A stretch of 64,000 nt of DNA from a bacterium (GCA_965216315.1 CBDCFN010000016.1:1152001-1216000); one strand, 5' to 3'. Shown: positions 12,930 through 64,000, counted from the stretch's first letter. The notes: a model not told the origin generated them from the letters alone. Numbers and translations are program-made.

Positions 12930-13084
12930 GCTTCAATGATGATTATAAGGGATTTTACCTGTCGAACGCAACCGGTCAATGAGCTAAGGGTTCAAAATTA
13001 GGGTGTTTTTTGGCATGATTTGAACTTGCCATGGTCCATGGCATATGGCATAGAGAGGACAGATTTTCCGGCTGCTCTATCTGG

Positions 13085-19099: not shown

Positions 19100-21223
19100 A
19101 TGTCAGTAGAAAAATTTAGCATCGATTTTGGTGGCCGCCCCATTATTTTTGAAACGGGGAAATTGGCCAAACAAGCGAGCGCGGCTGTGACCGTGCAGTA
19201 TGGTGACACGGTCGTTTTAGTCACAGCTGGGGTCGCCAAAGAAGCCAAGGAAGGAGCCGATTTCCTGCCCTTAACGGTGATTTATCAAGAAAAGACCTAT
19301 GCAGCCGGTAAGATTCCTGGTGGATTTTTTAAGCGGGAAGGGCGTCCCGCTGAATATGAAACGCTGACCAGCCGATTTATTGATCGACCGATCCGACCGC
19401 TGTTTCCGGATAATTTTTATAACGAAATGCAGGTCATTGCGACAGTGCTCTCGACTGACCAGGAGAACGAAGCGGACATCCTGGCAATGGCCGGGGCCTC
19501 CGCGACCTTATTGATGTCGGAAGCGCCTTTTGCCGGTCCCATTGCGGGAGCACGTGTTGGGCGAGTCGACGGCAAATTGATCTGTAATCCGACTCCTGAG
19601 CAAATGGATGAGAGTGATATTGATCTCATGGTTGCCAGTAGTGAGGAGGCGATCGTGATGGTTGAAGGGGGCTCGCTGGAAGTCAGTGAAGCGGACATGA
19701 TAGATGCTATCATGTTTGGACATGAGGCCGTTCAACCCGTCTTAAAACTTCAGAAAGAAATTGCTGCTAAGGTCGGAAAACAGAAGTTTGAAGTAGAGGC
19801 AGAGAGCGATAATGAAGAAATGGTTCAAAAGCTCAAGAGCGACTTCGGCGCGAAGATTGATCAAGCGCTGCGTGTTGTCGCTAAACAAGAAAGAAGTGCG
19901 GCCGTGTCAGAGGTCAAGGCGGAAGCCAAGGAGAGCCTCGTGCTGGATCCGGAAGACGTTGAGGCTGCAGAGGCCTTTGGTAAAGCCTTCAAGTCGGTTG
20001 AATCAACTTTGATGCGGGATATGATTCTCAATGAAAAGGTCCGCATTGGCGGCCGTAAATATGATGAAGTCCGTGAGATTGACTGCGAAACATCGGTTTT
20101 GCCGAGGACTCATGGCTCAGCCTTGTTTACTCGCGGAGAAACTCAGGCTTTAGTCATTGCGACGCTTGGTTCGGAGGATGATGCCCAGTATATTGATTCT
20201 GTCTCGGGTGGTGACGGTCGCAAACGCTTTATGCTCCACTACAATTTCCCGCCTTTTTCTGTTGGCGAAGTAAGAAGAATGGGCCCTCCGGGACGACGCG
20301 AAATAGGTCATGGTGCGCTTGCCGAGCGCGCCATACGTCCCATGTTGCCGGATCAAGAACATTGTCCTTACACAATTCGGATTGTGTCTGAAATATTGGA
20401 ATCCAACGGGTCTTCATCGATGGCAAGTGTCTGCGGGGCAAGCCTTTCACTGATGGATGCAGGTATTAAGATTGCTCGACCCGTGGCGGGTATTGCGATG
20501 GGGCTGGTGAGTCGAGATGGTGAGCGGGCGATCCTCTCGGATATTCTCGGTGACGAGGACCATCTCGGCGATATGGATTTCAAGGTAACCGGTACGGAGC
20601 AAGGGATTACCGCGCTTCAAATGGATATTAAAATTTCCGGTATTGATAAAGCGCTTTTGACTGAGGCGTTGGAACAGGCCCGTGTAGGACGGCTGCATAT
20701 CCTGAAGGAAATGGCGAAAGCACTTGAGGGGCCGCGCCAGGAGCTTTCCGAGCATGCTCCCAAGGTGCTGATCATGAATATCAATCCTTCACGCATACGC
20801 GATCTCATCGGCCCAGGTGGCAAAAACATCAAGGGCATTGTTGCTGAAACCGGGGCAAAGATTAGCGTTGAAGACTCAGGAGAAGTATCAATTTATTCTT
20901 CTGATAAGAGTTCCATGGATCTTGCGATTTCGCGCGTTAAAGAGCTTACCGCTGAACCGGAGATGGGCAAGATCTACCAGGGCAAGGTCCAGAAAATTAT
21001 GGAGTATGGTGCCTTTGTTGAAATTATGCCGGGCTTTGACGGGCTTCTTCATATTTCGCAGATTGATTTTAAGAGAATCAATCAAGTAACCGATGTTCTT
21101 AATGAGGGGGACATAACCCCGGTCAAAATCATTAAGATCGAGCCCAACGGAAAAGTTTCGCTTTCTCGTACCGAAGCATTGAAAGAGCTGGAGAATAAGG
21201 GAGAGGCTAAAGCTGACAACTAG
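19100..21223 (+). CDS. pnp: Polyribonucleotide nucleotidyltransferase
   Basis: GKIPGGFFKREGRP, RREIGHG, SNGSSSMAS, GDMDFK, KH and S1; GGAGG RBS before 19100. Confidence 0.98.
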   Translation: MSVEKFSIDFGGRPIIFETGKLAKQASAAVTVQYGDTVVLVTAGVAKEAKEGADFLPLTVIYQEKTYAAGKIPGGFFKREGRPAEYETLTSRFIDRPIRPLFPDNFYNEMQVIATVLSTDQENEADILAMAGASATLLMSEAPFAGPIAGARVGRVDGKLICNPTPEQMDESDIDLMVASSEEAIVMVEGGSLEVSEADMIDAIMFGHEAVQPVLKLQKEIAAKVGKQKFEVEAESDNEEMVQKLKSDFGAKIDQALRVVAKQERSAAVSEVKAEAKESLVLDPEDVEAAEAFGKAFKSVESTLMRDMILNEKVRIGGRKYDEVREIDCETSVLPRTHGSALFTRGETQALVIATLGSEDDAQYIDSVSGGDGRKRFMLHYNFPPFSVGEVRRMGPPGRREIGHGALAERAIRPMLPDQEHCPYTIRIVSEILESNGSSSMASVCGASLSLMDAGIKIARPVAGIAMGLVSRDGERAILSDILGDEDHLGDMDFKVTGTEQGITALQMDIKISGIDKALLTEALEQARVGRLHILKEMAKALEGPRQELSEHAPKVLIMNINPSRIRDLIGPGGKNIKGIVAETGAKISVEDSGEVSIYSSDKSSMDLAISRVKELTAEPEMGKIYQGKVQKIMEYGAFVEIMPGFDGLLHISQIDFKRINQVTDVLNEGDITPVKIIKIEPNGKVSLSRTEALKELENKGEAKADN

Positions 21224-50533: not shown

Positions 50534-51724
50534 ATGGATCTCGAGACCATAATCAGTACATCACAGCAGTATCTCATCGGGAACTATAAGCGCTTTCCGG
50601 TCGCCTGGAAAAAGGGCAAGGGAGTCTATCTCTGGGATACGACGGGGAAGAAATATCTCGATTTAGTCGCCGGCATTGCGGTCAATACCCTGGGCTATAA
50701 TCATCCGCGCATTGCCTATGTCCTGTCCAAGATGGCGACGCACCCGCTGCATGTCAGTAATCTCTATGAAATCGAAGAGCAGGCCGCGCTCGCCAAAAAG
50801 CTCGTTGATCTGAGTTTTGCCGCCAAGGCGTTCTTTTGTAACAGTGGCACGGAAGCGACCGAAGCCGCGGTCAAGGTCGCCCGCAAGTGGGGTAACGAGA
50901 AGGCAGACCAGCCGCGCAACGAAATCTTAACGACCTCCATGTCGTTTCACGGCCGGACGCTCAGTATGATCGCGGCCTCGGGGCAAGAAAAGCTGCGGAA
51001 GGGTTTCGATCCGATGCTGCCGGGGTTTCGTCACGTCCCTTATAATGATGCCACTGCCATGCGGGAAGCGGTCGGGCCCGAGACCTGTGCGATCATGGTC
51101 GAGCCGGTGCAGGGCGAGGGCGGCATCAATATTCCGGATCGGAATTATTTAAAGGAACTCAAGGATATCTGTCAGGAGCACCAACTGCTCTTGATCTTGG
51201 ATGAGGTGCAGAGTGGGATTGCCCGGACCGGGACGATGTTTGCCTACGAACAGTTTGGCGTCGTGCCGGATATTATCGCCTTAGCCAAGGGCCTGGGCGG
51301 CGGCGTACCGATCGGGGCGATGTTGGCCCGTGAATCCGTGGCGGAGAGCCTGACCCCGGGGTCCCATGGGAGTACCTTTGGGGGCAACCCGCTGGTGACG
51401 GCCGTGGCCACCGCGGTACTGGAGGCGATCGAGGAAGAAGATCTCGTGGAGCAGAGTGCGGAACTGGGGCAGTATTTCTTAAAATGCCTTAACGAGCTGC
51501 AGTCGCGCTATGATTTCTTACATGGCGCCCGGGGGATCGGGCAGATGCTGGCGATTGATATTGATCAGGAGGCACGCCCCGTTGTAGAAAAGTGTTTGGA
51601 AGAGGGCTTGATAATCAATGCCGTGCAGGCGCATACCTTGCGCTTTTTGCCGCCGCTCATCATCAATCGGAAGCAGATTGATGAGGGCATTGAAATTTTG
51701 GACTCGGTTTTTAAGGAATTGTAA
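50534..51724 (+). CDS. argD: Acetylornithine aminotransferase
   Basis: NSGTEA.E, FHGRT, EPVQGEGG, DEVQ.G, AKGLGGG. Confidence 0.95.
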   Translation: MDLETIISTSQQYLIGNYKRFPVAWKKGKGVYLWDTTGKKYLDLVAGIAVNTLGYNHPRIAYVLSKMATHPLHVSNLYEIEEQAALAKKLVDLSFAAKAFFCNSGTEATEAAVKVARKWGNEKADQPRNEILTTSMSFHGRTLSMIAASGQEKLRKGFDPMLPGFRHVPYNDATAMREAVGPETCAIMVEPVQGEGGINIPDRNYLKELKDICQEHQLLLILDEVQSGIARTGTMFAYEQFGVVPDIIALAKGLGGGVPIGAMLARESVAESLTPGSHGSTFGGNPLVTAVATAVLEAIEEEDLVEQSAELGQYFLKCLNELQSRYDFLHGARGIGQMLAIDIDQEARPVVEKCLEEGLIINAVQAHTLRFLPPLIINRKQIDEGIEILDSVFKEL

Positions 51725-52629
51725 TGAAAAAGGACCTGTTAACACTGTGGGATCTGGAGGCGGAAGAAATACTCTCCATCGTCGATGATGCGGTGACGGA
51801 GAAGGAATGTCCGACCGCCGATCAACCGCTCGCCGGCAAGACCTTGGCCCTCGTCTTTGAGAAGTCCTCTACGCGCACCAAAGTCAGTTTTACCGTCGCG
51901 GCGCAGCAACTAGGCGCCGGCGTCGTGAGTTTGGATCAACAAAGCAGCCAACTCGGTCGTGGGGAGACCCATGCCGATACGGGCCGGGTCTTGAGTCAAT
52001 ATGTCGATGGCATTGTGCTCAGGACCTTTGCGCAGCGCAATCTCGAAGAGCTTGCCGCGGCTGCGAGCGTGCCCGTGATCAATGGTCTCTCTGATGCCTA
52101 TCACCCTTGCCAAGTCCTTGCCGACCTTGCGACGGTTCAAGAAAACTTTGGTGAGTTAAAGGATATTCGCTTTGCCTGGGTTGGGGATGGCAACAATATG
52201 ACCCATAGCTGGATTGTCGCGGCGGCCAAGTTAGGGCTTGAGCTGCAGATTGCCACTCCGAAGGGCCGGGAGCCGGCCGCGGATGTCGTCAAACGAGCCG
52301 GTGAGTTGACGGACAAAATCCATATCGGTACGGACCCGGTGGCAGCGGTCAAGGGGGCTCACGTGATTAATGCGGATACCTGGGTGAGTATGGGGCAGGA
52401 AGATGAGGCCGAAGCGGTAGCGGTCTTTGAACCGTATCAGGTAAACGCGGCGCTTTTGAAGCACGCGACGGATAGTGCCATCGTATTACATTGCTTGCCG
52501 GCTCACCGGGGCGAGGAAATCACCGATGAGGTGATGGACGGGCCGCAATCACGTATCTGGCAGCAGGCCCAGTATCGCCTGCATGCCCAAAAGATTATTT
52601 TGAAACGTTTTATGGGGGATAGGACTTAA
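51724..52629 (+). CDS. argF: Ornithine carbamoyltransferase
   Basis: FEKSSTRT, HPCQ, WVSMG, HCLP. Confidence 0.97.
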   Translation: MKKDLLTLWDLEAEEILSIVDDAVTEKECPTADQPLAGKTLALVFEKSSTRTKVSFTVAAQQLGAGVVSLDQQSSQLGRGETHADTGRVLSQYVDGIVLRTFAQRNLEELAAAASVPVINGLSDAYHPCQVLADLATVQENFGELKDIRFAWVGDGNNMTHSWIVAAAKLGLELQIATPKGREPAADVVKRAGELTDKIHIGTDPVAAVKGAHVINADTWVSMGQEDEAEAVAVFEPYQVNAALLKHATDSAIVLHCLPAHRGEEITDEVMDGPQSRIWQQAQYRLHAQKIILKRFMGDRT

Positions 52630-52630
52630 T

Positions 52631-53836
52631 ATGGCTGCGAAGAAGAAAATTGTTGTCGCCTATTCGGGCGGGCTGGATACCTCGATTATAATTCGCTGGT
52701 TGATCGAAGAGTATGACTTTGATGTCATCGCGTACATTGCCGACCTCGGGCAGGAAGAACCACTCCAGCAGATCAAGCAAAAGGCCCTCAAGACCGGGGC
52801 CTCCAAGGCCATTATCTCCGATCTCCGCGAAGAATTCGTCAAAGATTACGTCTGGCCCATGCTGCGCGGCAACGCGCGCTATCAAGATACCTACTTGCTG
52901 GGCACCTCGATTGCGCGGCCGATCATCGCGAAGGAACATGTGCGGATCGCTAAGAAAGAGAAGGCGGCCTATGTGTGTCACGGTGCGACCGGTAAGGGGA
53001 ACGACCAGATTCGCTTTGAGCTGACCTATTATGCCTTGGCTCCAAAGATACAAGTTATTGCGCCGTGGAGAGAATGGTCTTTTGAAGGGCGCCAAGATCT
53101 TATCGACTATGCCAAGAAGCATGGCATTCCGGTACCGGTCTCCAAGAAGAAGCCCTATAGTATGGACCGGAATCTCCTTCACCTGAGTTTTGAGGGGGGG
53201 ATCTTAGAAGATCCTTGGGCGGCGCCGCCGGAGGATATGTTTGTTTTGACCCAGTCGCCGCAAAAAGCCCCGGCGAAACCCCAGGATCTGACCCTTGAGT
53301 TCAAGAAGGGTGATGTCGTCAAGATTAACGGCAAGGCGGGGACGCCTGCGCAGTTGTTGCAGCGCCTTAATAAGGTGGCCGGCAAGCACGGCGTGGGGCG
53401 GGTCGACATGGTCGAGGATCGCTTCACGGGCATGAAGAGCCGCGGGGTCTATGAAACCCCCGGCGGGACCGTCATTCACGTCGCCCGCGGGGCCCTGGAA
53501 TCGATCACGCTCGATCGGGAGGTCCGGCAGATTCTGCTGAGTACGATGCCTCATTATGCCGAGGCCGTGTATAACGGGTTTTGGTTCGCGCCGGAACGCG
53601 AGTTGATGCAGGAAATGATCGATAGTGCCCAATCCGCCGTTACCGGCTCGGTGCGGGTGCGGCTTTATAAAGGGAGCTGTACTGTGCTCGGGCGGAAGGC
53701 GCCGAAGTCGCTGTTTAGTAAGGAGTATGCGACTTTTGAGAGTGATAAGGTTTATAAGCAGAATGATGCTGAGGGGTTTATTAAGCTGAATGCCCTGAGG
53801 TTGAAACTGCAGGCGATGGTTAGACCGAGGCGGTAG
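52631..53836 (+). CDS. argG: Argininosuccinate synthase
   Basis: [35 protein letters not shown]. Confidence 0.98.
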   Translation: MAAKKKIVVAYSGGLDTSIIIRWLIEEYDFDVIAYIADLGQEEPLQQIKQKALKTGASKAIISDLREEFVKDYVWPMLRGNARYQDTYLLGTSIARPIIAKEHVRIAKKEKAAYVCHGATGKGNDQIRFELTYYALAPKIQVIAPWREWSFEGRQDLIDYAKKHGIPVPVSKKKPYSMDRNLLHLSFEGGILEDPWAAPPEDMFVLTQSPQKAPAKPQDLTLEFKKGDVVKINGKAGTPAQLLQRLNKVAGKHGVGRVDMVEDRFTGMKSRGVYETPGGTVIHVARGALESITLDREVRQILLSTMPHYAEAVYNGFWFAPERELMQEMIDSAQSAVTGSVRVRLYKGSCTVLGRKAPKSLFSKEYATFESDKVYKQNDAEGFIKLNALRLKLQAMVRPRR

Positions 53837-53846
53837 GGGAGAGTTT

Positions 53847-54497
53847 CTAGTTTTCTTTGCATGATTGCGGTTTAATTTTACGGGACGGAGTAAACTCTAC
53901 CGTTGTGCCCTTTTTACATTTGATACCTTGAATAATCTCATCTTCGGCAAGTAGTGCTCTTTGTATTGACTCTGTGTGGGAATAATATGTTGCGGATCCT
54001 TTCACAATTCTGATTCCCTGCGCTCTTACAACCCCATCAGGTAATGTCTCACATGATTGCTCTATAAGCTTACCGTTTTCGTCAAAATCGATATACACTG
54101 AAGCGGGACAGTTAACATCGTGAATCAACATATCACTGCGTAGAATAACGTCTTTAAGTTTTCCGTTTTCACGAAAATTGATTCTTGTAGCCTTTGGGAA
54201 GTTTAGCCCCTGCACCATCATCTGATTTGCGATCATGGCATGTTTTATATTTCCATTTTCATAGAAATATACTCTACTGCCTTTTGGAACAGTAAGTCCC
54301 TGTATTACCATGCGATCGGTGGGTTCAAGTTGATCAATATTCCCGTTTTCGTAAAAACACGCGTATTGACCCTTTGACAGTTTAAAACCCTGAACAAGTT
54401 GATCTTCACTCAAATAACTGCAATTGGGCCTGGAATCGTCAAGAAACATACTGCAACCCGCCCCTATTAATGCGATTATTAGAACCAGTATTTTCAT
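53847..54497 (-). CDS. Putative lipoprotein with ~30-aa beta repeats (FYENG.. / MORN-variant-like)
   Basis: Lipobox-like IGAGC; repeated QG...PKG....F.ENG(N/K). Confidence 0.65.
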   Translation of the reverse strand: MKILVLIIALIGAGCSMFLDDSRPNCSYLSEDQLVQGFKLSKGQYACFYENGNIDQLEPTDRMVIQGLTVPKGSRVYFYENGNIKHAMIANQMMVQGLNFPKATRINFRENGKLKDVILRSDMLIHDVNCPASVYIDFDENGKLIEQSCETLPDGVVRAQGIRIVKGSATYYSHTESIQRALLAEDEIIQGIKCKKGTTVEFTPSRKIKPQSCKEN

Positions 54498-54647
54498 ATG
54501 CTAGCCTGCAACGTTGCCCTGCAGATATATAAGTTGATGGTTCAAAAGTATCTGTTTCTGAAACACTGATTGTAGCGAGATTGGCGCCTGAAATCACTGA
54601 GAAAAGACACACAAGCAATTCACAATACGGAGAAGAGCTTGCATGAG

Positions 54648-54671
54648 GACACAAGACGGAGCTGAGCTCCC
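54648..54671 (+). repeat. Island motif, L type
   Basis: GACACAAGACGGAGCTGAGCTCCC abutting the argG 3' copy; degenerate copy CACAATACGGAGAAGAGCTT at 54621-54640. Confidence 0.85.
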
Positions 54672-55085
54672 TTTACCGGGATGAAGAGTCGCGGGGTCTA
54701 TGAAACACCCGGTGGAACGGTTATTCATAGTGCCCGTTGTGCGCTTGAATCGATCACCCTCGATCGGGAAGTCAGGCAGATCCTGCTGAGTACTATGCCT
54801 CATTATGCAGAGGCCGTGTATAATGGGTTTTGGTTTGCTCCGGAGCGGGAGTTGTTGCAGGAAATGATTGATAGTGCTCAGGAAGCCGTTACTGGCTCGG
54901 TGCGGGTGCGGCTGTATAAAGGGAGTTGTACCGTCTTAGGGCGGAAGGCGCCGAAGTCGCTGTTTAGTAAGGAGTATGCGACTTTTGAGAGTGATAAGGT
55001 TTATAAGCAGAATGATGCCGAGGGCTTTATCAAGCTCAACGCTTTGAGGCTGAAGTTGCAAGCGATGGTTCGACCGAGGCGGTAG
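54672..55085 (+). pseudogene. argG: Duplicated 3' third of argG (5'-truncated fragment)
   Basis: Colinear with 53423-53836; 4 amino-acid differences; lacks the N-terminal two thirds. Confidence 0.9.
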
Positions 55086-55122
55086 GGGGTGGGTTAGGAG
55101 CTAGACTGTGAATTAGTTCATA

Positions 55123-56316
55123 TTAGGTGTGATTCTCAAGTTGAGTAATAGTGAACCTCAGTCTAGCTAACAAATCATCATATGTAATGATATCAACGAT
55201 ATTCTTATATTTTCTCTTTATGACCTCGAAGTCTTGCTTTTGTTCTGACTTCAGATTTTCATCCCTCCCCATCACGATGATTCCACTCGGATTCGTGATC
55301 TTGATGCTGAAGCCGTCTGGTAGCCTATCTTGATATCGCTCAGATAGGGTCATTTCACCTGCTCGTCCCCATTTGTTTAGGTAGAAAATGTACTTCTCAA
55401 TCTGCATTACCGTACCGGAGAGTTCCCGTAGTGGGATGTAGTTATCTCTATATTGACTATTGGTGACAATGCATTTATCAAATGGTTGTTTGATTTCCAC
55501 TATGTCAGTATTGCCCGACGAATCCACCAAGAGAAAATCCAATTCTCTAGTTTTTTGATTGTAGGTATCCCTAATCTTCGCTGATTTGAATACCCTTATG
55601 TATTTAGGGTAAAGCAAAAGAATAATTTGCACTATCTGATCCTGCCATTGCGCCTCACTGTACGTATTCTCATTATTCAGCATGTCAGTAAGTTTTTTTT
55701 GTAGTAATGTGTATTTGATAATTTCATTGTCCTTAAATATTTCTATGAGATCTTCTCCTGTGTTCACGATTTTTTTATTCAGGTACTGGTGATATTTCTT
55801 TTCACCGTCGTATTTAGTCTCAAAGTAATCTCTGATAATAGCGCTGACTCTTGCTTCAACGTATAATCTCAATTCGTAAGTATTCGGAAAGTACTTGATG
55901 AGCAGATTAAAATCCTCTTCTGGTATGCTATCAGGGTGGTTGCCTCCAATGCGAATCAACTTTGCTCCTAAAGCGCTCACCTTGGAAAAAATTGATACAT
56001 TTTTTTCAGCAGTAAATGATCGATAGGTAAGAGGAATATCTTGGTGGATCCATAAATCGAATTCGATTGAAAGAATTCTTCTATGTATTAGGAAGTATTC
56101 ACCATGCTTTTTTCCAATATTGAACTCAACAGGTATATCTGGATTAGGCGTTACTTCTGTGCTTGATCCGTACAGATCTTCTTTTGTGACGTGAAATGTG
56201 TTCTTTAGACATACTGTCTCATCATTATTAAGTCTCCGGTATAGCCAATCGTTATCGCTATTCGTAGTGTCGTATTCTAATACCAGAGAATCATTGACTT
56301 TTTCGAACTCAAGCAC
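55123..56316 (-). CDS. Shedu-like (DUF4263) anti-phage nuclease
   Basis: SE..WQ, DFLLVD....DIVEIK.P, YRDNY.P.RELSG..MQ..KY, IITYDDLL motifs of the DUF4263 PD-(D/E)xK domain. Confidence 0.8.
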   Translation of the reverse strand: MLEFEKVNDSLVLEYDTTNSDNDWLYRRLNNDETVCLKNTFHVTKEDLYGSSTEVTPNPDIPVEFNIGKKHGEYFLIHRRILSIEFDLWIHQDIPLTYRSFTAEKNVSIFSKVSALGAKLIRIGGNHPDSIPEEDFNLLIKYFPNTYELRLYVEARVSAIIRDYFETKYDGEKKYHQYLNKKIVNTGEDLIEIFKDNEIIKYTLLQKKLTDMLNNENTYSEAQWQDQIVQIILLLYPKYIRVFKSAKIRDTYNQKTRELDFLLVDSSGNTDIVEIKQPFDKCIVTNSQYRDNYIPLRELSGTVMQIEKYIFYLNKWGRAGEMTLSERYQDRLPDGFSIKITNPSGIIVMGRDENLKSEQKQDFEVIKRKYKNIVDIITYDDLLARLRFTITQLENHT

Positions 56317-56403
56317 GGTAATTAATGAACCTCGAGGACGTAACTATTCGTTAGTATGGTTGTTTCTTTCTTATAGCGCAAGCATTTCACAGCAAAGCAG
56401 GAT

Positions 56404-56424
56404 GACACAAGGTGGAGGTGCGAA
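56404..56424 (+). repeat. Island motif, R type
   Basis: GACACAAGGTGGAGGTGCGAA; matches the reverse complement of 60538-60556. Confidence 0.75.
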
Positions 56425-56674
56425 TAGGTTACCTTGCTCTGGCCCTCTAAATAATTACTCTCCAGCCGAAGAAGTAAATTTTTTTCTAATCTCCGACTAA
56501 TTTTATTCAAATTAAAGGCATGCGCCAAGCGTTATTGAATAGCGCTTGGCGGGGGGTGGATAAATTTTCGCCATGTGAAGGCGATGTGCTCGTTTGTTAG
56601 TTCTTTTAGCGCAACATGATTTAATATATTCTGTCGAAACGACGTCCTAATCGACGAATAAACTTACAAATGAC

Positions 56675-58531
56675 ATGGCAAGAAACGTTAATGATGCATA
56701 TAAATCCCAAAACAGATGGCGTGCTGTATTAGATCATACTGAAGGAACCCTTGTTGTAAACGCTGGTCCTGGTACAGGAAAGACATTTAGCTTGTTGAGA
56801 AAAATTGAGCAGCTTCTTAATGATGGTACAGATCCGGATAAGATATATTATCTCACATTTGTGAATAGCATCGTTGATGCATTTAAAGCAGATGTTGCGA
56901 AAGCTGAGGCGAATGGTGGACTTGGGAGAGACGCTGATGAATTAGGAATAAGAATCTCAACACTGCACAGTTTAGGCTTTAAGGTTGTTAAAGCTTATGC
57001 AGCCAAGCTAGGGCTCTCAGAGCATATCGAGGTTGTTGAAGCTTCTAAAAAGCCGGTTCGAATTATTTCGAAGCTGTTTGTTTCAGATCTATATTTTTTA
57101 GCTAAAGATGACGGCGTAGTTTCAGACAAGAGAGGATTTAAAACGGCGTTGTTAAGGCTGCAGAAAGCTTGGCAAAGTGGGAATGCAGTACCAATAGAAT
57201 TGCAAGGGCTAGATGAACTTGTAGATAAGCTAAGTCGGAAGTATGAAGCGCTTTCGTGGGACCATTTGGTGCTGCTAGCAAATCAGGCTATTGAATCCTA
57301 CGGATTGCCCAAATGGCTCAAGGATGCAGAACATTTTATGATTGATGAATACCAAGACTTTAATCCGGCAGAGCAACGTTTGATTGATTTGGTTACTGAA
57401 CCTTCGGATTCTGTTGTCATCGTAGGGGATATGGACCAAAGTATTTATAGCGGTAGATCCGCTTCTCCGCAGGGACTACAAGAATTGCTAGAGCACAATC
57501 ATGTATCTACGGTCAACTTCGTGTATTGCCGCAGATGTCCGATAAAAGTAATTGAAGCGGCAAACCGTATGCTGGAACTTATGGATCCTAACAATTTCCA
57601 AGATAGAGCCTTGCAGGCGTTTAAAGGAGAAGAGGGGTTGCTACATATAAGCCATGTTAGGAGTTGCAAAGCAGAACTAGATTTGATCGCGGCTGAGATC
57701 AAGGAACATCTATCTAATGGCACGACAGATATAGCTATCTTGATGCCGGGTAGAAAAGGTATGGACTATTACAGGGATAAGCTGAAAGAGCGGGGCATTA
57801 ACTGTGTTATTCATAAGACTGGCAATGAGGAGCGGGAAATGTTGTCTGTATACCTGCGATTAGCTATTCTGAAGGAACAAGCTCTACTTGAACGAGTCTT
57901 GCTGAGTACGTTTCCAGCTCTCGAGAGGAGATTTCAAAGGGATGTGCTGCCTCGAATGATCATGCAGGATCTTTCGATTGTCGAAGCTCTGAGAGCTGCA
58001 GAGCTAGAAGTGGGGAGCGGGTGGCGTAATGATGTCCGTCAAGCTCTTCAGAAGTTCGAAGAAGAGCTGAAACTAATTAGGTCTCAAGATTCAAATAAAT
58101 TATCGGTATTCCTAAAAGAAAAGGGATGGGAGGTTCCAGAAGACCAATTGAAGGAAATATTAGATGATGAGCATGATGCATGGACCGTTGCAGAGCGAGT
58201 TGATATGATAATTAAGCAGCTCGATCATAATAAGGATGAAGAAGAAACATCCGATGCTACTGTACAATTACTCACGATGCATAGTTCCAAAGGGCTTTCC
58301 AAAAGTGTGGTAATTATGCCAGCTCTTGAAGACAAGTGGATACCAGCTAGATCAGTTGGTGAGGCTCTGAAAGAAAAGCATCGATTATTTTATGTAGCGC
58401 TGACAAGATCGGAAGAATGTATGATTATTACTTATCCCAGGACTCGAGCGAGAGGTGATCCTTTAAACCATACCCCACAGGGGGCTAATGAAGGTCCATC
58501 ACGATATTTGGAGACAATCGATAATATATAG
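56675..58531 (+). CDS. UvrD/Rep-like superfamily 1 helicase
   Basis: AGPGTGKT, STLHS, IDEYQD, VGD.DQSIY, TMHSSKGL, RLFYVALTRS. Confidence 0.9.
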   Translation: MARNVNDAYKSQNRWRAVLDHTEGTLVVNAGPGTGKTFSLLRKIEQLLNDGTDPDKIYYLTFVNSIVDAFKADVAKAEANGGLGRDADELGIRISTLHSLGFKVVKAYAAKLGLSEHIEVVEASKKPVRIISKLFVSDLYFLAKDDGVVSDKRGFKTALLRLQKAWQSGNAVPIELQGLDELVDKLSRKYEALSWDHLVLLANQAIESYGLPKWLKDAEHFMIDEYQDFNPAEQRLIDLVTEPSDSVVIVGDMDQSIYSGRSASPQGLQELLEHNHVSTVNFVYCRRCPIKVIEAANRMLELMDPNNFQDRALQAFKGEEGLLHISHVRSCKAELDLIAAEIKEHLSNGTTDIAILMPGRKGMDYYRDKLKERGINCVIHKTGNEEREMLSVYLRLAILKEQALLERVLLSTFPALERRFQRDVLPRMIMQDLSIVEALRAAELEVGSGWRNDVRQALQKFEEELKLIRSQDSNKLSVFLKEKGWEVPEDQLKEILDDEHDAWTVAERVDMIIKQLDHNKDEEETSDATVQLLTMHSSKGLSKSVVIMPALEDKWIPARSVGEALKEKHRLFYVALTRSEECMIITYPRTRARGDPLNHTPQGANEGPSRYLETIDNI

Positions 58532-58562
58532 AGGTGCTTTTAAATCTTAAGGAGGGTTATCG

Positions 58563-59381
58563 ATGAAGGTTTTCATAGGATGGTCACATGAAGTCAGCCA
58601 TAAGATGGCGTTGGCAATACACGAATGGTTTCCCAACGTAATTCAGTCTATTGAACCTTATGTATCATCTGAGGATATTTCTAAGGGCAGTCACTGGTTT
58701 TCGGATGTATGTGACAATTTAGATCAAGCTGATTTTGGAATCATATGTCTTACTCCTGATAATGTAAATGAGCCATGGATTCTATTTGAGGCAGGCGCGT
58801 TAGGTACGAAATTTGGGAGATCAAAGGTTTGCCCATTATTGTGGCGTATATCTGCTACCGACCTTAAAGGTCCATTGTCACATTTTCAATCATGTGCATT
58901 AAATGCAGATGATATGTTACGACTTGTCGGTGATATAAATAAGCAATTAAATTCGAGTATATCAGATGAAAGGCTCGTCAGTACATTCGAACTATGGTGG
59001 CCAAAATTAGAAGAGAAATTGTCTTCTATTCATGAAACAGCCCCGCTTGATTCTTCATCAGGGAAAAGTAGAGGTGACAGAGATCTATTAGAGGAAGTTC
59101 TCCAGCGAGTTCGTGCATTGAAGAATAGCATGGATAGAAGATTCAATGCCGCGAGTAACGTAAATGTTTATGAATGCCATCAAGATAATGCTAAGCCCCG
59201 TGAAGGTTCTGAAGGCATTGAACTTCTTCAGGGTCAGTTGGATAATTTTGAACGGAATTTTATTGGAAGAATTTTAAAAAGTAATAAATTCAACTTAGAT
59301 TTAGCTGCCAGAACGTTAGGAATTCATAGGAAGACGCTAGAGTATAAGATGAAGAGACTGGATATAGACATGCCAAACTAG
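58563..59381 (+). CDS. TIR-domain protein with C-terminal Fis-type HTH
   Basis: KVFIGWS...W.....L...DFGIICLT..N...PWILFEAGAL (TIR); ER..I...L.....N...AARTLGIHRKTL.YK (Fis HTH). Confidence 0.8.
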   Translation: MKVFIGWSHEVSHKMALAIHEWFPNVIQSIEPYVSSEDISKGSHWFSDVCDNLDQADFGIICLTPDNVNEPWILFEAGALGTKFGRSKVCPLLWRISATDLKGPLSHFQSCALNADDMLRLVGDINKQLNSSISDERLVSTFELWWPKLEEKLSSIHETAPLDSSSGKSRGDRDLLEEVLQRVRALKNSMDRRFNAASNVNVYECHQDNAKPREGSEGIELLQGQLDNFERNFIGRILKSNKFNLDLAARTLGIHRKTLEYKMKRLDIDMPN

Positions 59382-59398
59382 GAGAATCAAAAAAAGAA

Positions 59399-59422
59399 GG
59401 CACAAGACGGAGGTAAGCTCCC
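59399..59422 (+). repeat. Island motif, L type
   Basis: GGCACAAGACGGAGGTAAGCTCCC, 17 nt after the TIR gene stop. Confidence 0.85.
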
Positions 59423-59569
59423 TTTTAGGTGTAGTCGGGGATAAGACTCCAAAAATAAGACTCACCCAGTAGCGATAATTTGCACTTCACGCGGCTAGTG
59501 CTAGAGATTAAAATATGTGACGACTTGATGAAACATATAATCTACACATGACAATGATTTCGGTAAACT

Positions 59570-60460
59570 GTGATGAATGAACTGTGGTTGACAGCAAAAA
59601 ATATTATTTTTCAATGGGTGCTACCAATTGCTGGTTTTTTAGGTTTGATATATGGGTGGCGAAGCTACCGTATAGCTAAGCGGAGCCAAAAAAATAGGAA
59701 GTTGAAATTTGAATGTAATGAAAGAGCACTCGTTTTTTCAAGCAAACTTACTGAAAAGGATAGTGTTGATTTCAGACTCAACGGTGAAAGAGTTAGAAAT
59801 TTATATTTTCTTGAATTCACTATTACAAATATCGGCAATGAGGTCCTGTATGCTAAAGATTTTAGGGAGCCATTCCAAATTGAATTCCCGGGTGAGATAA
59901 ATATTTTCCCACTACGCATCGAACGCGATAAAAATGATATCAACATCACATACGACATTAAACCTGAAAGTACAAAGACGACGGTGACAATCAATACAGA
60001 ACTCGTGGAGCCGAAGGACAAAATCATCTTTACACTACTATATGAGGCTACGAAGTACGCTGGTTATGTGCCTGTCGTGCGGATAATAGATGGCAATTTG
60101 GAGAATGTTAGATCCGATTGGGGACGTGAGGAGTCCTCTGAAGACATCGAGGCGAGAATACGAAAGAAATATGAACGTCGTTCTAAGCTAGGTGACTTGC
60201 CGGTGATGATAATGACAGGTCTTTTTTGTGCGCTCATTGCGCTGCCAGTTTACATAATATATCCAGATTTTTTTGCGGATGATTATGAATATAGCATCAT
60301 TCGTAATATTATCATTGGTTGTGTTGCTCTGATTGTTCTAAGTGGCGTTATGAGGTATGCTTTGCGAAGTCACCAGAAATGGTTCAATGAATTTGTTAAT
60401 GAGAAGGTTGATGAAGCAAAACGCAGAAAATTTCTATTGCCACATGAAGGAGATAGGTAA
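59570..60460 (+). CDS. Hypothetical membrane protein (N-terminal TM, beta-rich domain, two C-terminal TMs)
   Basis: 296-aa ORF with hydrophobic segments; AT-rich. Confidence 0.65.
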   Translation: MMNELWLTAKNIIFQWVLPIAGFLGLIYGWRSYRIAKRSQKNRKLKFECNERALVFSSKLTEKDSVDFRLNGERVRNLYFLEFTITNIGNEVLYAKDFREPFQIEFPGEINIFPLRIERDKNDINITYDIKPESTKTTVTINTELVEPKDKIIFTLLYEATKYAGYVPVVRIIDGNLENVRSDWGREESSEDIEARIRKKYERRSKLGDLPVMIMTGLFCALIALPVYIIYPDFFADDYEYSIIRNIIIGCVALIVLSGVMRYALRSHQKWFNEFVNEKVDEAKRRKFLLPHEGDR

Positions 60461-60465
60461 GAAGA

Positions 60466-60556
60466 GACACAAGACGGAGGTGAGATCCCCTGGGGCACGA
60501 ACTGCGGGCTAGATTTCAGCTAATCTCGTGTGCCGTTTTCGTACCTCCACCTTGTG
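60466..60556. mobile_element. Mini non-autonomous element (REPIN/MITE-like doublet of the island motif)
   Basis: GACACAAGACGGAGGT ... ACCTCCACCTTGTG inverted ends ~90 bp apart; internal sequence resembles both flanks of the transposase gene. Confidence 0.7.
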
Positions 60557-60558
60557 GG

Positions 60559-60599
60559 CTGCCAATTTTCCCCTTGAGCTCCCCCGCATCCTCAACTAG
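60559..60599 (+). repeat. 41-bp duplicate of the VOC-gene upstream region
   Basis: 39/41 identical to 62079-62119. Confidence 0.9.
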
Positions 60600-60612
60600 T
60601 AAGACACAATAA

Positions 60613-60964
60613 GACACAAGACGGAGGTGAGCTCCCATGGCGCACGAAATTCGGACTAGATTACAGCGGATTTGGTTTACGGATTATTGCTTCTGTTAGT
60701 TTTCGACGATGATGGTGCTGGTTTGGGCCGGATCGCTACTTTAATGCCGAGATTGGATCGTCAGCCGGCCATTAAAGCGCATTCACGATATAGCTGTGCG
60801 CCATTTTCTTAAAACTGAATTGTATGAGCTGGTTTAGTTTTCTTTATGGGACATTTTCACCAAAGCGTAGGGCATGACGCTCTTTCCAGTCGGCATACTG
60901 ATCCTTGCGAATCTCTTTGATTTCCCGTGTCTTCCAATTGACCCAATTTGGGTTACCAATGAAG
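60613..60964. repeat. Diverged tandem copy of motif + downstream region + transposase 3' end
   Basis: Colinear with 60969-61324; begins GACACAAGACGGAGGTGAGCTCCC. Confidence 0.9.
60844..60963 (-). pseudogene. Transposase C-terminal fragment (39 aa + stop)
   Basis: FIGNPNWVNWKTREIKEIRKDQYADWKERHALRFGENVP*, 37/39 identical to the intact transposase end. Confidence 0.88.
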
Positions 60965-61203
60965 AAAAGACACAAGACGGAGGTAAGTTCCCCTAGCGCA
61001 CGAGATTCGGACTAGATTTCATAGGATCTCGCTTACGGATTGTTACTTCTGTTAATTTTACGGCAATGATGGGTTTGGTTTGGGGCGGATTACTATTTTA
61101 ATGCCAAGATTTGCTCATTATTCAGCCATTAAAGCGCATCCAAGGTATAGCTGTCCGCTGGTTTTCTAAAAACTGAATTGTATGAACTGATTTATTTTTT
61201 TCT

Positions 61204-61917
61204 TTAGGGGACATTCCCACCAAAGCGGAGGGCATGTCGCTCTTTCCAGTCGGCATACTGATCCTTGCGAATCTCTTTGAGCTCCCGAGTCTTCCAATTA
61301 ACCCAATTTGGGTTACCAATGAAGCACGTGCTTGAATACGGTTTCTTTTCCTTCCAGTCGTTCTTAAGGATTTCTTGAATCATCGCGAGGTATGCTGCCT
61401 GTCGGCGTTGAGGCGTGGAGCTTAGTGTGAGATAAGATGGGGCTGGGGTGATGAGGGGGTCAGCTGTACCGTAGGCATAGTAGCCGAAAGATGAGTATTC
61501 GTTGTGTCGGGGATGCTTGACCTTGTAGGCCCGTTTGGGATTGAGGTCGATGTAGAGCATGACCTTGAGTAAATCACGATCTGTTTGAATACTCGGGGAT
61601 TTAAATCGATCCATGACTACCTGGCCGCGTCTTTGGACTTGCTTGTTGTAGGCCTTGGCAAAGCATGCGTTTACGACACGGAAGAAATCAGAGAAGGTTT
61701 CTAACTCCTCCATACGTCCAGACAAATGGATATGATTATCCATGAGACAGTACGAGTAGATCTGCACTGAGTATCGGTCCTTATATTTTAGTAACAGCTG
61801 ATAGTAGAGCTCCTTGGCCCAGCATTCTTTGAGGAGCCAGGACTTATTATGGCACTGCCACGTGACGTGGAAGGTGGATTCCTCTTCGAGGATGGCACGG
61901 CGGGGGAGTGAAGGCAT
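61204..61917 (-). CDS. HUH Y1 transposase, RAYT/TnpA(IS200)-like
   Basis: MP..PR, FHVT, YCLMDNHIHL (HUH), RFKS, YIDLNP.RA (catalytic Tyr), YSSF; ATG 61917 preferred over TTG 61947. Confidence 0.88.
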   Translation of the reverse strand: MPSLPRRAILEEESTFHVTWQCHNKSWLLKECWAKELYYQLLLKYKDRYSVQIYSYCLMDNHIHLSGRMEELETFSDFFRVVNACFAKAYNKQVQRRGQVVMDRFKSPSIQTDRDLLKVMLYIDLNPKRAYKVKHPRHNEYSSFGYYAYGTADPLITPAPSYLTLSSTPQRRQAAYLAMIQEILKNDWKEKKPYSSTCFIGNPNWVNWKTRELKEIRKDQYADWKERHALRFGGNVP

Positions 61918-61930
61918 TAGAACTGCATAG

Positions 61931-61946
61931 AGCAAGGACTGTGCCA
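61931..61946 (-). promoter_or_regulatory. Sigma54 (-24/-12) promoter of the transposase
   Basis: TGGCAC-AGTCC-TTGCT on the minus strand. Confidence 0.65.
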
Positions 61947-62125
61947 AGATGGCATTCGATAAAAAATAGGTAGTTAGCGTTTATTGGGACCAGGGAAGGG
62001 TTTCAAGTTGAGACGCGCGAGTCTCGTTTTCGTACCTCCGTCTTGTGGCCATTGTGGCCATTTCTCCACCTTGCGGAACTGCCAATTTTCCCCTTGAGCT
62101 CCCCCGCATTCTCGACTAGCACTAA

Positions 62126-62524
62126 GTGACTATCAAAACCCCACCCTCACAACTAAGCACCCTCAACCACATCGCCCTCAAGGTCCGCGATCTTGCGGCC
62201 TGCACCGACTTCTATCACGGCATCCTTGGCCTGGAGCTCATCGAAAGGCAACAAAATGAGACCGGGGCCGAGCGAGCCGTTTGGTTTCGATTGGCGGACG
62301 GCATCCTCATGCTGGAAAGACAGGAGGAGGGGACTAAGGCTTCGATAGCGTCCGAAGCCGGCTGGCATTTGCTCGCGTTGACGATTCCGGAGACGTCACG
62401 TGACCAATGGAAAGACTACTTAAGCAGTCATGATATCTCGATCGCGCAGGAGAGCGCGTATTCGCTTTATTTTCGGGACCCCGAAGGCAATCGCGTGGCG
62501 TTGTCGCATTTTGCCTCAGCATGA
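62126..62524 (+). CDS. VOC (glyoxalase) family protein
   Basis: LNHIALKVRDL....FY..ILGL, H.A, LYFRDPEGN. Confidence 0.9.
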   Translation: MTIKTPPSQLSTLNHIALKVRDLAACTDFYHGILGLELIERQQNETGAERAVWFRLADGILMLERQEEGTKASIASEAGWHLLALTIPETSRDQWKDYLSSHDISIAQESAYSLYFRDPEGNRVALSHFASA

Positions 62525-62525
62525 A

Positions 62526-62571
62526 GAGATAAGCCGGAGGTGAACTCCTTTTTGGAGGCTAACTTGTGGCC
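62526..62571. repeat. Degenerate island motif doublet
   Basis: GAGATAAGCCGGAGGTGAACTCC immediately after the VOC stop, followed by CTTGTGGCC. Confidence 0.55.
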
Positions 62572-62574
62572 CTC

Positions 62575-63255
62575 TCATTTCATTAAACGCTGATCCTTAA
62601 GTCGATAAAGCGTTCTCTTTTCTTTCTGTGGGCGGATGAACTCTTTTAGCTGCGCTGGAGACATATCGATTTTAGCCGGACATTGCCCAGGAAAATCACG
62701 GATAAAATTTCGCTCTGGAACGTTAACAACGTTAAGATGCGATCTATCGGAATCGGATGCCATAACCATGCGAGGCACCTCTACAGTACTGCTTGATGGT
62801 GAGGTTTCCGAATTGTCCGTTTCTGTAGTTAGTTCGATGCGGTTAAAGGGTATGATGAATTGGCCTTCTTCCGTGATAATGGGAGACGTACTGAAACAAG
62901 AATGGTAGTTTTCACATAGGCAATTAAAAATCTGTTCAGAGAATGTTGCGTGAAGTCTTTCAAGACACATATTAAAGTATGCGACACGGCTTTCAGTCGT
63001 GTTTAGGCGGGCGATTTCTCTGTGGCAGTCCAGCATTCTTTGATAGCCGTCGGCGCCAATGACGCACCTCTCTGCAGACGCCCCTTTTTCCATACATTGC
63101 TCACGGTCCTTTCGCATAGCTTCAATGATGCTGGGCATTTCCAGCGGGGTGAGCCTTTTCAGATCTGGGCCTTGCGTTGGCGGAGCGGCTTGGCTCAAGG
63201 GGATAAAGGTAAGGCTTAGTAGGGCGGCAATAAATAGGGTTAGGGTGGTTCGCAT
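62575..63255 (-). CDS. Secreted Cys-rich hypothetical protein
   Basis: Signal peptide MRTTLTLFIAALLSL...SQA; AGGAG RBS before ATG 63255; eight Cys. Confidence 0.7.
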   Translation of the reverse strand: MRTTLTLFIAALLSLTFIPLSQAAPPTQGPDLKRLTPLEMPSIIEAMRKDREQCMEKGASAERCVIGADGYQRMLDCHREIARLNTTESRVAYFNMCLERLHATFSEQIFNCLCENYHSCFSTSPIITEEGQFIIPFNRIELTTETDNSETSPSSSTVEVPRMVMASDSDRSHLNVVNVPERNFIRDFPGQCPAKIDMSPAQLKEFIRPQKEKRTLYRLKDQRLMK

Positions 63256-63310
63256 CGGGGACTCCTGTTTGAAAGTTTTTGTGCTTACGGCTTTATAAGG
63301 GATTAGGTTG

Positions 63311-63326
63311 TGCAAATATTGTACCA
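63311..63326 (-). promoter_or_regulatory. Sigma54 (-24/-12) promoter
   Basis: TGGTAC-AATAT-TTGCA on the minus strand, upstream of the secreted protein. Confidence 0.65.
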
Positions 63327-63361
63327 AGAGTCGTGTAGCTAAATAAAAATAAATTCAGTAA

Positions 63362-63374
63362 TATCAATAGCTTA
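63362..63374 (+). promoter_or_regulatory. IHF-binding site
   Basis: TATCAATAGCTTA matches WATCAANNNNTTR in an AT-rich tract upstream of the sigma54 promoter. Confidence 0.55.
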
Positions 63375-63441
63375 TTGAGTAATTGATTAACATGGTTGTT
63401 ATCATTCTGATAATATTATCATTATGAGAAATAACTATTAA

Positions 63442-63480
63442 GGCGCGAGCCGGCGGTGCAGTCCCCTGGGGGCGAACTGC
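63442..63480 (+). repeat. Degenerate island motif copy
   Basis: GGCGCGAGCCGGCGGTGCAGTCCCCTGGGGGCGAACTGC aligns with 60466-60505 GACACAAGACGGAGGTGAGATCCCCTGGGGCACGAACTGC. Confidence 0.6.
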
Positions 63481-63775
63481 CAGCGGAGCGACCGGGGGAA
63501 ACAATGCGCGGCAATCTCAGCCCCAGGCTCAACCCGATACCTCAACTCATTCCTTTACGGCGGATACCTTGCTCCAGGGTATGATGCAGGTCGGTGGCGT
63601 GGATGTCGTTGGCGCCTTGGGTCCCGCTATGAGCTGAGCGTTGTGTCATGCGCGTTGGATCTGTCTTCGTCTTCTTGAAATTAACATCACTCTGCGATAT
63701 CTTCTCCCGCTAACGTGAGGCGGTCCGCACGATGAGCGCCGCCATCTAAGTCATCAAATAACGAGGGAGAGTCTC

Positions 63776-64000
63776 ATGGCAGAGCAAAAGAAAATATGTA
63801 TCGTCATCACCTCAGGAATGACCGATGAACGTTCGTCAGTCGCGTGGAGCATGGCCAACGGCGCCATCACGGCGGGGCTGGACGTGTCGGTATTTCTGGC
63901 CAGCGCCGGCATTGATTGGGTGCGAAAAGGCGCCGCCGACAAAGTGTGTTTGAACCCGCTTGATCCTCCGATGAAAGAGATGATCGACAAGGTGGTGAAC
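63776..64000 (+). CDS. DsrE/DsrF-like family protein (truncated by window end; not in the ORF track)
   Basis: Hand translation MAEQKKICIVITSGMTDERSSVAWSMANGAITAGLDVSVFLASAGIDWVRKG...; GAGGGAG RBS. Confidence 0.75.
   Translation, partial: MAEQKKICIVITSGMTDERSSVAWSMANGAITAGLDVSVFLASAGIDWVRKGAADKVCLNPLDPPMKEMIDKVVN

Follow-up and report, generated by a model that had tools for sequence, protein, structure and literature searches.

Tyrosine transposases flanked by repeats have already been described under the names TIRtron and TIRYT (PMC3733652), and have been equated with subclass 2.1 of the TnpA-Y1 enzymes (PMC6006769) and with group 1 of the RAYTs (PMC5581495), the tyrosine transposases associated with repetitive extragenic palindromic (REP) sequences; these three papers describe the group as low in copy number, poor in repeats and of unknown role. 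REP repeats standing just past stop codons are ordinary REP behaviour (PMC3733652), and the mobile elements and strain-specific genes of Pseudomonas lie in "REP deserts" (PMC3390384). A 64,000-nucleotide stretch of bacterial DNA (hereafter the window; positions 1152001-1216000 of contig C16 in the 16-contig, 2,964,260-base assembly of the genome coded G000) contains an element of the TIRtron/TIRYT kind in a new lineage and with a new repeat core. The element and its derivatives nest in a hypervariable defence island that follows argG, and there they appear to act as recombination breakpoints, a reading to which we assign a probability of roughly 0.55. A preliminary description of the window had put the island forward as a candidate gene-capture hotspot, built by the transposase as a cassette-like analogue of an integron. 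Genes were called with Pfam, PADLOC and NCBIfam, repeats were located with a repeat finder, and class-wide comparisons were made with a set of 93 genomes of the same class.

A repeat family confined to one island and its transposase

The repeat was sought with the 16-mer GACACAAGACGGAGGT, at up to 3 mismatches in the window and up to 2 mismatches in the whole assembly. The window holds 8 matches against 0.41 expected, a number reached in 0 of 100 shuffles, and all 8 fall within 54648-62541. With four weaker copies the full family spans 54621 to 63442, one stretch of about 9 kb, in agreement with the dozen copies of the preliminary description. Among the weaker members, the minus-strand copy at 60543 has 4 mismatches, yet 19 nt of it are 95% complementary to 56406-56424; the copy at 63442 has 5 mismatches (74% identity over 31 nt) and carries the longer extension described below for the L type; and the copies at 54621 and 62063 (minus strand) are degenerate. 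The repeat finder groups 54618, 62525 and 63441 as weaker members of one 31-nt family, and recovers the inverted copies at 60538-60556 and 62033-62047. Across the whole assembly the 16-mer has 9 matches, 7 of them inside the island and the other 2 at about chance level, and the extended L pattern, AAG-NN-GGAG[GC]T-N-A-NN-TCC, has 6 matches, every one in the island. The motif family is confined to the island within the 2.96 Mb genome, and the possibility that it is scattered genome-wide has been dispelled. Scans of metagenomes and of viral contigs with a 21-nt L pattern gave one match each, which we attribute to chance because each is a single copy without a transposase nearby.

Alignment of the twelve copies gives a common core, (G/C)ACACAAG-NN-GGAGGT, which contains GACG (CGTC on the opposite strand), is without a GTAG head and has two continuations. 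The L-type continuation is [GA]AG-N-TCCC, followed in four copies by ..CGCACGA-N-ATTCGGACTAGATTTCA, while short L copies have a T run directly after them; the R-type continuation is ACGAAAAC.. and then a hairpin. All 7 L copies are on the plus strand, and the R copies are at 56404 (plus) and at 60543, 62034 and 62063 (all minus).

The two continuations are the two ends of a transposable element. A 15-nt inverted pair (60971-60985 and 62033-62047, 100% complementary) brackets the only Y1 transposase gene, as had been noted, and defines a complete element of 1.08 kb (60969-62049) that encodes an enzyme of 247 amino acids (aa). The genome has one full copy of the transposase and one 3' fragment. 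An element on contig C219 of genome G001 is 79% identical over 60970-62046, from L end to R end, where the homology stops, and its protein is 85% identical. Among eight transposase copies surveyed (five in G031, two in G001, one in G000), the core lies about 95-125 nt upstream of the transposase start in all eight, often as a hairpin doublet, and inverted about 200 nt downstream in seven, so the motif is, as had been supposed, the cognate flanking repeat of the enzyme in three genomes. A 14-mer (up to 3 mismatches) was found near 5 of 6 relatives' transposases that are at least 59% identical and near 1 of 13 more distant ones (19 loci in all), which indicates that the core is specific to this branch of transposases. 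Upstream of one paralogue, in G031 (locus L135, contig C35), the usual doublet has in front of it a 19-nt unit (AAGACGAAGGTTCGAAATT) repeated seven times head to tail.

The motif is thus the terminal inverted end of a Y1/HUH transposase element, and its copies in the window comprise a complete element and a truncated one, a miniature doublet of an L and an R end, and several ends that stand alone (solo ends), of which two are old and decayed. The truncated element (60613-60968) consists of an L end and 356 nt of the 3' part, within which 60847-60966 corresponds to residues 208-247 (93%). The solo ends are short L ends at 54648, 59399 and 62526, an R end at 56404, a decayed R end at 62063 and a decayed long L end at 63442.

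The earlier identification of the enzyme as RAYT-like is borne out by family profiles, catalytic motifs and predicted structure. Its HUH motif (N71-H72-I-H74) has both histidines invariant in 9 homologues, as are Y132, D134, L135 and N136 of the tyrosine motif (Y132-I-D-L-N-P); the class 2 signature of TnpA-Y1 is Y-x-x-x-N-P according to Table 1 of PMC6006769. The protein reaches 29.5 bits with Pfam Y1_Tnp (cut-off 23), and the NCBIfam profile REP_Tyr_transpos (NF047646) matches over positions 3-146 of 146 (5e-15; 55.6 bits, below its cut-off of 80). The predicted structure (pLDDT 78) has as its best PDB match 4ER8_A, the E. coli TnpA-REP with its REP hairpin (E 1.3e-6, TM 0.72), with IS200, IS608 and ISDra2 behind it (ranks 2-27); a search of the PDB by sequence only gave no match to the transposase. 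Beyond the core of about 110 aa the model has a C-terminal extension with helices at 179-195 and 213-242, and at E <= 0.01 Pfam shows Y1_Tnp alone, with no helix-turn-helix (HTH) family in the C-terminal part. The enzyme is a Y1/HUH transposase, probably of the RAYT group 1 or TIRYT type, an assignment to group 1 and subclass 2.1 that rests on motifs, length and inverted-repeat flanks.

Breakpoints at the ends of the element

Three partial duplications, all of them genuine, have a motif copy at the junction, as originally proposed. About 418 nt of the 3' end of argG are duplicated (53419-53836 and 54668-55085; more than 300 nt at 85%, range 85-87%), and, in a codon-by-codon reading, the displaced copy, argG', starts at the 3' edge of the L copy at 54648. 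The 3' end of the transposase gene is duplicated over 127 nt at 93% and 115 nt at 77%, the truncated element ending (..CCAATGAAG) at the 5' flank of the next L copy. The third duplication is a 41-nt stretch (95%) that lies upstream of a gene of the VOC/glyoxalase family; its first copy starts after the R end of the miniature and ends at the 5' flank of an L copy. Two tandem duplications also end at the core, TAAGACACAA twice at 60603 and TTGTGGCCA twice at 62041. The latter, a 9-nt duplication at an R end (62041-62058), is missing at 62043 in contigs of two of the four public runs that contain the stretch (all from one study, and read only as assembled Logan contigs of 3-15x, broken at repeats), and is therefore polymorphic in the population. 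Two unusual joints in the same contigs were set aside: the joint from 53415 to 54677, with 12 other letters in between (depth 6, side 36), probably comes from a relative's argG, and 60696 to 60467 has a depth of 2.43, too weak for use.

None of the 93 class genomes has more than 20 copies of the exact 11-mer AAGACGGAGGT, and at least 10 are found in G000, G029, G031 and four of the five members of another genus, g27. The suggestion that copies cluster at variable islands is upheld in this second genus, where block insertions and rearrangements likewise break at repeats. Contig C48 of G041 carries 12 of that genome's 19 exact copies within 28 kb, and contig C6 of G027 carries 13 of 20 within 44 kb, both sets beside transposase paralogues; the remaining copies are mostly near other paralogues, and paralogues are also found singly, outside arrays. 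Many copies of g27 form palindromic doublets of about 64 nt that fold at -38.3 kcal/mol (z -12.4). In G041 there are also 35-36-nt tandem duplications of one repeat half, at 12970/13006, 25353/25388 and 38806/38842.

The array contigs of G041 and G027 have collinear flanks and interiors of 42 kb against 97 kb, in which the common genes are 72-87% identical and have changed order and orientation. At one site, G027 has a decayed copy between genes a and b, where G041 has a doublet, two genes and a single copy; at another, the decayed copy that separates genes e and f in G027 corresponds in G041 to a pair of inverted genes with a doublet on one side and a single copy on the other. Between G041 and G076 (85-97% identical), one block keeps its left repeat while its left neighbour differs, another keeps its right doublet while its right neighbour differs, and at one border the homology begins within the core, at ..CGGAGGTTCG. 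The ends of the element are recurrent breakpoints: in two genera, duplications and several block gains, losses and rearrangements join at or next to copies.

The cargo of the g27 arrays is miscellaneous (secreted hydrolases, surface proteins, VOC proteins and many proteins without a known family), and no recombinase besides Y1_Tnp was found among 32 open reading frames (ORFs) in G041 or 52 in G027 and G053 together. Between the R end and the next L copy there is a slot, occupied by the VOC gene in G000 and by a cation-efflux gene in G001. A VOC/glyoxalase-family gene is present in all four repeat arrays scanned (G000 62126-62524; G041, L023 16306-16677; G027, L026 4053-4511; G053, L143 5893-6324). 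A conserved unit of transposase and VOC gene was considered and ruled out: the VOC protein encoded beside the transposase in G041 is only 29% identical to that of the window, so VOC is a recurring cargo of a broad family and not one conserved gene. The candidate arrangement of contig C43 of G020 as two 4.5 kb repeat-bounded units was likewise rejected, its self-comparison showing no internal homology. Beside the G027 array (C6:125110-127756; L026 11110-13756) lie three low-GC genes (GC, the guanine-plus-cytosine fraction, 0.35-0.36), which include a DUF6680 protein and a reverse transcriptase (RVT_1) and are possibly a retron- or DRT-like defence unit.

The argG island, its history and rival explanations

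The island separates argG from a serC-like aminotransferase gene. It is an insertion of 11.9 kb that starts at 53837 and runs past the end of the window to about 65777. Its features and borders are as follows.

52631-53836, plus strand: argG (argininosuccinate synthase), left core border (Pfam Arginosuc_synth, Arginosuc_syn_C)
53847-54497, minus strand: MORN-repeat lipoprotein gene, cargo of the innermost module (lipobox IGAGC; GC 0.40; Pfam MORN_2)
54618-54671, plus strand: degenerate copy (54621) and short L copy (54648-54671), abutting argG' without a spacer
54668-55085, plus strand: argG', displaced 3' fragment of argG, residues about 264-401 (Pfam Arginosuc_syn_C 93-218/219)
55123-56316, minus strand: Shedu SduA defence nuclease (Pfam SduA_C, 1.4e-39; PADLOC SduA, 2e-155)
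56404-56424, plus strand: solo R end of the GGTGG subtype, 19 nt 95% complementary to 60538-60556
56456-56577, plus strand: tiny third remnant of the argG 3' end (..CCGAAGAAGTAA) and conserved post-argG stretch
56675-58531, plus strand: UvrD/GajB-like SF1 helicase (Pfam UvrD-helicase, UvrD_C; PADLOC GajB, 1.5e-47)
58563-59381, plus strand: TIR-domain protein with C-terminal Fis-type HTH (Pfam CAP12-PCTIR_TIR, TIR_2, HTH_8)
59399-59422, plus strand: short L solo copy, 17 nt past the stop of the TIR gene
59570-60460, plus strand: 296-aa membrane protein (no Pfam, NCBIfam or PADLOC match)
60466-60557: 92-nt miniature with long L end (plus) and R end (minus), interior deleted; REPIN/MITE-like doublet
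60559-60599, plus strand: 41-nt stretch, copy 1, which elsewhere precedes the VOC gene (95%)
60603-60968: 10-nt tandem duplication (TAAGACACAA twice), long L end and truncated transposase 3' end
60969-62049, minus strand: complete TIRtron-like element, with L end, Y1/HUH transposase gene (61204-61947, minus) and R end
62041-62078, minus strand: 9-nt tandem duplication (TTGTGGCCA twice), then degenerate second R end (62063)
62079-62119, plus strand: 41-nt stretch, copy 2, directly upstream of the VOC gene
62126-62524, plus strand: VOC/glyoxalase-family gene, between an R end and the next L copy (Pfam Glyoxalase)
62526-62549, plus strand: degenerate, GC-richer short L copy, 1 nt past the VOC stop
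62575-63327, minus strand: secreted protein of about 240 aa with signal peptide (no Pfam, NCBIfam or PADLOC match)
63442-63490, plus strand: degenerate, GC-rich long L end, the rightmost copy (74%)
63776-64144, plus strand: DsrE-like gene
64170-65633, minus strand: DUF5123-like gene, the last of the island
65778: start of the Aminotran_5 gene, where the core resumes

The positions of copies relative to genes were reported correctly: they stand 17 nt past the TIR stop, 5 nt past that of the membrane protein gene and 1 nt past that of the VOC gene, and upstream of the starts of the MORN lipoprotein and Shedu genes. GC is 0.36-0.47 inside the island and 0.51-0.61 in the flanks; the decayed, GC-richer copies lie far from argG, and low-GC cargo adjoins it. 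A nucleotide search of the 93 class genomes gave no homologue of the cargo, returning only the transposase element and argG, and no recombinase family other than Y1_Tnp was found among 11 ORFs of this region. The GajB-like UvrD helicase gene is followed 31 nt on by the TIR gene (56675-59381), whose product matches the PADLOC TIR-TM model (7e-72) over residues 1-190 and has the Fis-type HTH in place of the transmembrane part of TIR-TM; helicase and TIR-HTH protein may be a variant two-gene defence system.

The core gene order of relatives is argF, argG, Aminotran_5 gene, serA. In the close relatives G001, G002 and G003 the aminotransferase gene lies within about 120 nt after argG, with no island between. 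Among 13 genomes with argG and serA on one contig, the gap between these genes is 1.17-1.9 kb in 10, 13.1 kb in G000, 9.9 kb in G020 and 6.7 kb in G027. In the latter two, which belong to one family, the space between argG and the aminotransferase gene is taken up by two or three very large, GC-rich genes (L111 2819-11397, L153 1925-7189), one with HTH domains and one ending in a PALP domain; this motif-free insertion may be older and vertically kept.

A sibling strain is represented in the same assembly by contig C11 (4,592 bases), which is 96.3% identical to window 50571-53828 (argF-argG). Directly after its argG stop stands a homologue of window 56465-56577 (85%, blastn), with no MORN gene, argG', Shedu or R copy of 56404, and beyond it lies different cargo, a DUF5343 protein and a weak Swt1-like HEPN match (L146 1-1330), which also takes the place of the UvrD and TIR genes. 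Since the cargo of C11 differs, the argG site holds different likely defence cargo in co-occurring strains, and the expectation that island content would vary among relatives is confirmed.

The argG sequences themselves are mosaic. Because 56456-56470 resembles the extreme end of the C11 argG, we regard it as a third, tiny argG remnant. The central part of argG' is closest to the C11 allele, and the same part of the working argG is divergent and GC-richer; between the two 3' copies there are many synonymous differences centrally, the last 190 nt or so are near-identical, and the extreme ends are shared mosaically. This pattern suggests gene conversion between the two copies. The 3' part of argG may have received at least two insertions in succession, each bringing a replacement argG end, a minus-strand cargo gene and a motif copy, with gene conversion afterwards. 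The innermost module, made up of an argG 3' piece, the MORN gene and an L end, would be explained most simply by a circle whose joint connected the L end to argG codon 264 or thereabouts, and which re-entered argG at the same position or through a homologous crossover, so that the gene was restored and the old 3' end displaced. The present order, argG(1-263), argG(264-end), MORN, L, argG'(264-end), fits the re-entry of such a circle. Elements of the IS608 family insert at a target identical to their left cleavage sequence, and a similar rule here would explain the repeated use of one argG site.

That the element and its derivatives lie in the island as breakpoints is the reading we prefer. Local action of the enzyme, the landing of new copies next to existing ends and tolerance of insertions there would keep the copies in the island. 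The catalyst at some joints may be the Y1 enzyme, cutting and rejoining single-stranded DNA (ssDNA) at the conserved core as its family would suggest; alternatively, many of these products could arise by host recombination or by replication slippage between repeats, and REP copies occur at the join points of tandem duplications in Salmonella. Several observations weigh against this reading. Junctions differ by several bases in their position relative to the core, and the right border of the Shedu module is about 32 nt past its R copy, not at it. The cargo of C11 diverges from that of the window at a motif-free point, the argG-serA insertions of G020 and G027 have 0 motif copies in the gap, and motif-free breakpoints also lie at 20748 and 32197 in G041 and at the far end of a 5.8 kb insertion in G076. 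A tally places 6 of 11 g27 block ends within 120 nt of a motif, a count confounded by the intergenic position of both; motifs fill most intergenic gaps of the arrays, and the coincidence is therefore partly expected. The five paralogues of G031 are only 77-88% alike, so that recent transposition of a full element is not seen, and no circles or empty-site joints are readable in the Logan contigs of the four runs, which break at repeats. The GGAG-N5-CTCC hairpin attributed earlier to the L type does exist as a stem of 4-5 bp in a repeat that proves to have two end types, but the folding energy of single copies, -2.4 to -4.2 kcal/mol (z -0.05 to -0.9), is no better than that of shuffles. Because cargo turnover also occurs without the motif, the repeats apparently contribute to the variability of the island without being its sole engine.

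These same points bear on three other explanations. The copies could be the decayed remains of a selfish element with no part in cargo gain, in an ordinary hotspot filled by flank recombination or by other elements, with the duplications and shuffling as by-products of host recombination between any repeats. The motif-free insertions of G020 and G027, the motif-free border of the sibling strain's cargo swap, the mosaic argG copies, the degeneracy of several copies and the frequency of tandem duplications of repeat halves are all in its favour; we nevertheless think it unlikely, if deserving of attention, since the start of argG' coincides exactly with the 3' edge of an L copy, all three duplications have their junction at a copy, homology between g27 genomes starts within the core, and single copies of 15-25 nt are short for RecA-dependent recombination. 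At the other extreme is the dedicated, integron-like platform of the preliminary description, in which the Y1 transposase inserts, excises and reorders cassettes at the motif and so builds the array. It would account for copies that are specific to the locus, stand at gene ends and, in the L type, all point one way; for the doublet, genes and single copy of G041, as expected from a circle integrating at a resident site; for g27 blocks with differing neighbours past their repeat and for the differing cargo of the transposase-adjacent slot in G000 and G001; for the transposase as sole recombinase family in four arrays; and for the decayed copies far from argG with low-GC cargo next to it. This platform is nonetheless improbable: cargo lies on both strands and the spaces between motifs do not hold one gene each; some swaps and insertions at the same site are motif-free (C11, G020, G027); circles and empty sites are not seen in run contigs that break at repeats; three of the same-direction L copies come from local duplication, which leaves the orientation bias weak; direct-repeat deletion explains the g27 patterns equally well; and enzyme paralogues also occur singly outside arrays. 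Nothing demonstrates that the enzyme builds the array, and several breakpoints and two argG-site insertions are motif-free. A regulatory or RNA element of the island genes (terminator, ribosome-binding region or small RNA) is hardly credible, even with three copies 1-17 nt past stop codons, a GGAGG within the motif and the T run after short L copies: neither Rfam families nor tRNAs matched in 53000-64000, terminator-like sites are unenriched (9 found, 9.7 expected, one overlapping a copy), as are promoters in a likewise scan, the hairpins fold no better than shuffles, and the same core is inverted around transposase paralogues.

Comparison with known systems

The locus has partial likenesses to several systems. 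Integrons have an IntI tyrosine recombinase, an attI site, attC sites and cassettes oriented one way from a proximal promoter, and CALINs are arrays of attC sites without an integrase. Like them, the island is a fixed chromosomal locus with variable accessory and defence genes and a short repeated site, and folded ssDNA sites would be a further likeness to integrons if the Y1 enzyme is the catalyst. Unlike integrons, it has no integrase family among its ORFs, no attI site and no common promoter, its genes lie on both strands, and its blocks hold several genes or none; the repeat is presumably unlike attC, by the general architecture of attC sites rather than by an attC model. The pdif modules of Acinetobacter plasmids are also modular blocks, bounded by short Xer sites and acted upon by XerC/D.

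The IS200/IS605 elements (IS608, ISDra2) have the same catalytic fold and chemistry, and their ssDNA-circle model inspired the history proposed for the MORN module. According to Table 1 of PMC6006769, their enzymes are of about 150 aa with a Y-x-x-x-Q motif, and the elements have subterminal hairpins, no inverted ends and many near-identical copies, whereas here there are one full copy and one fragment, a YIDLNP motif and inverted ends. The dRS3/NIME and CGTC repeats of Neisseria (PMC3733652) are similarly short inverted sites clustered in mosaic intergenic regions, and the core here contains GACG; the CGTC repeats, however, have stems of 8-9 bp and no dedicated transposase, and the repeats here are the ends of a Y1 element.

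With the REP/REPIN-RAYT systems the locus shares a single-copy Y1 enzyme between its own inverted repeats, copies that lie shortly downstream of genes, doublets that in relatives fold into long hairpins, and a structure closest to 4ER8. It differs in the absence of a GTAG/GTGG head and of a stable single-copy hairpin, in its numbers (about 12 copies, and no more than 20 exact cores in class genomes, not hundreds dispersed), and in falling short of the NCBIfam equivalog cut-off (55.6 versus 80 bits).

The closest likeness is to TIRtrons and TIRYTs, as far as the accessible parts of their descriptions extend: a RAYT-like Y1/HUH gene lies between terminal inverted repeats without GTAG hairpins; the known enzymes of about 238-240 aa have a C-terminal extension, and that of the window has 247 aa; the tyrosine motif is Y-x-x-L-N-P; the repeats occur as singles, dimers and clusters, and paralogues within a genome have diverged. 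Flanking 16-mers of group 1 average about 12 per replicon (PMC5581495), and there are about 12 copies here. Differences from the same descriptions are the core, (C)ACAAGACGGAGGT here and GGGGWSAS in many TIRYT repeats; the C-terminal part, where HTH-like similarity (Bac_DnaA_C, HTH_23, HTH_28) is known for TIRYTs and Pfam shows only Y1_Tnp here; and the confinement of copies to one hypervariable island, at junctions of duplications and blocks, which those parts do not describe for TIRYTs. A literature search found nothing linking RAYT or TIRYT repeats to cassette arrays or defence islands, a weak negative in that the search was swamped by unrelated word matches.

For annotation, the element accounts for an unusual repeat that stands in the defence island of an uncultured lineage, and partial gene copies such as argG' call for caution, as they can be footprints of such events. 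The defined substrates (L end, R end and doublet) make Y1 recombination at the core testable. A bolder and rather doubtful generalization is that group 1 RAYT/TIRYT enzymes are recombinases of ssDNA cassette exchange at short AAGACGGAGG sites, single or in hairpin doublets; if so, gene blocks would be excised as circles, re-inserted and reordered in a chromosomal hypervariable island, and the system would be an HUH-based counterpart of the integron in function, concentrating defence and surface genes. In two genera the cognate repeats are concentrated in a hypervariable island, and those of the window occur only there, the opposite of the arrangement that PMC3390384 gives for Pseudomonas, where variable genes and mobile elements lie where REP sequences do not.

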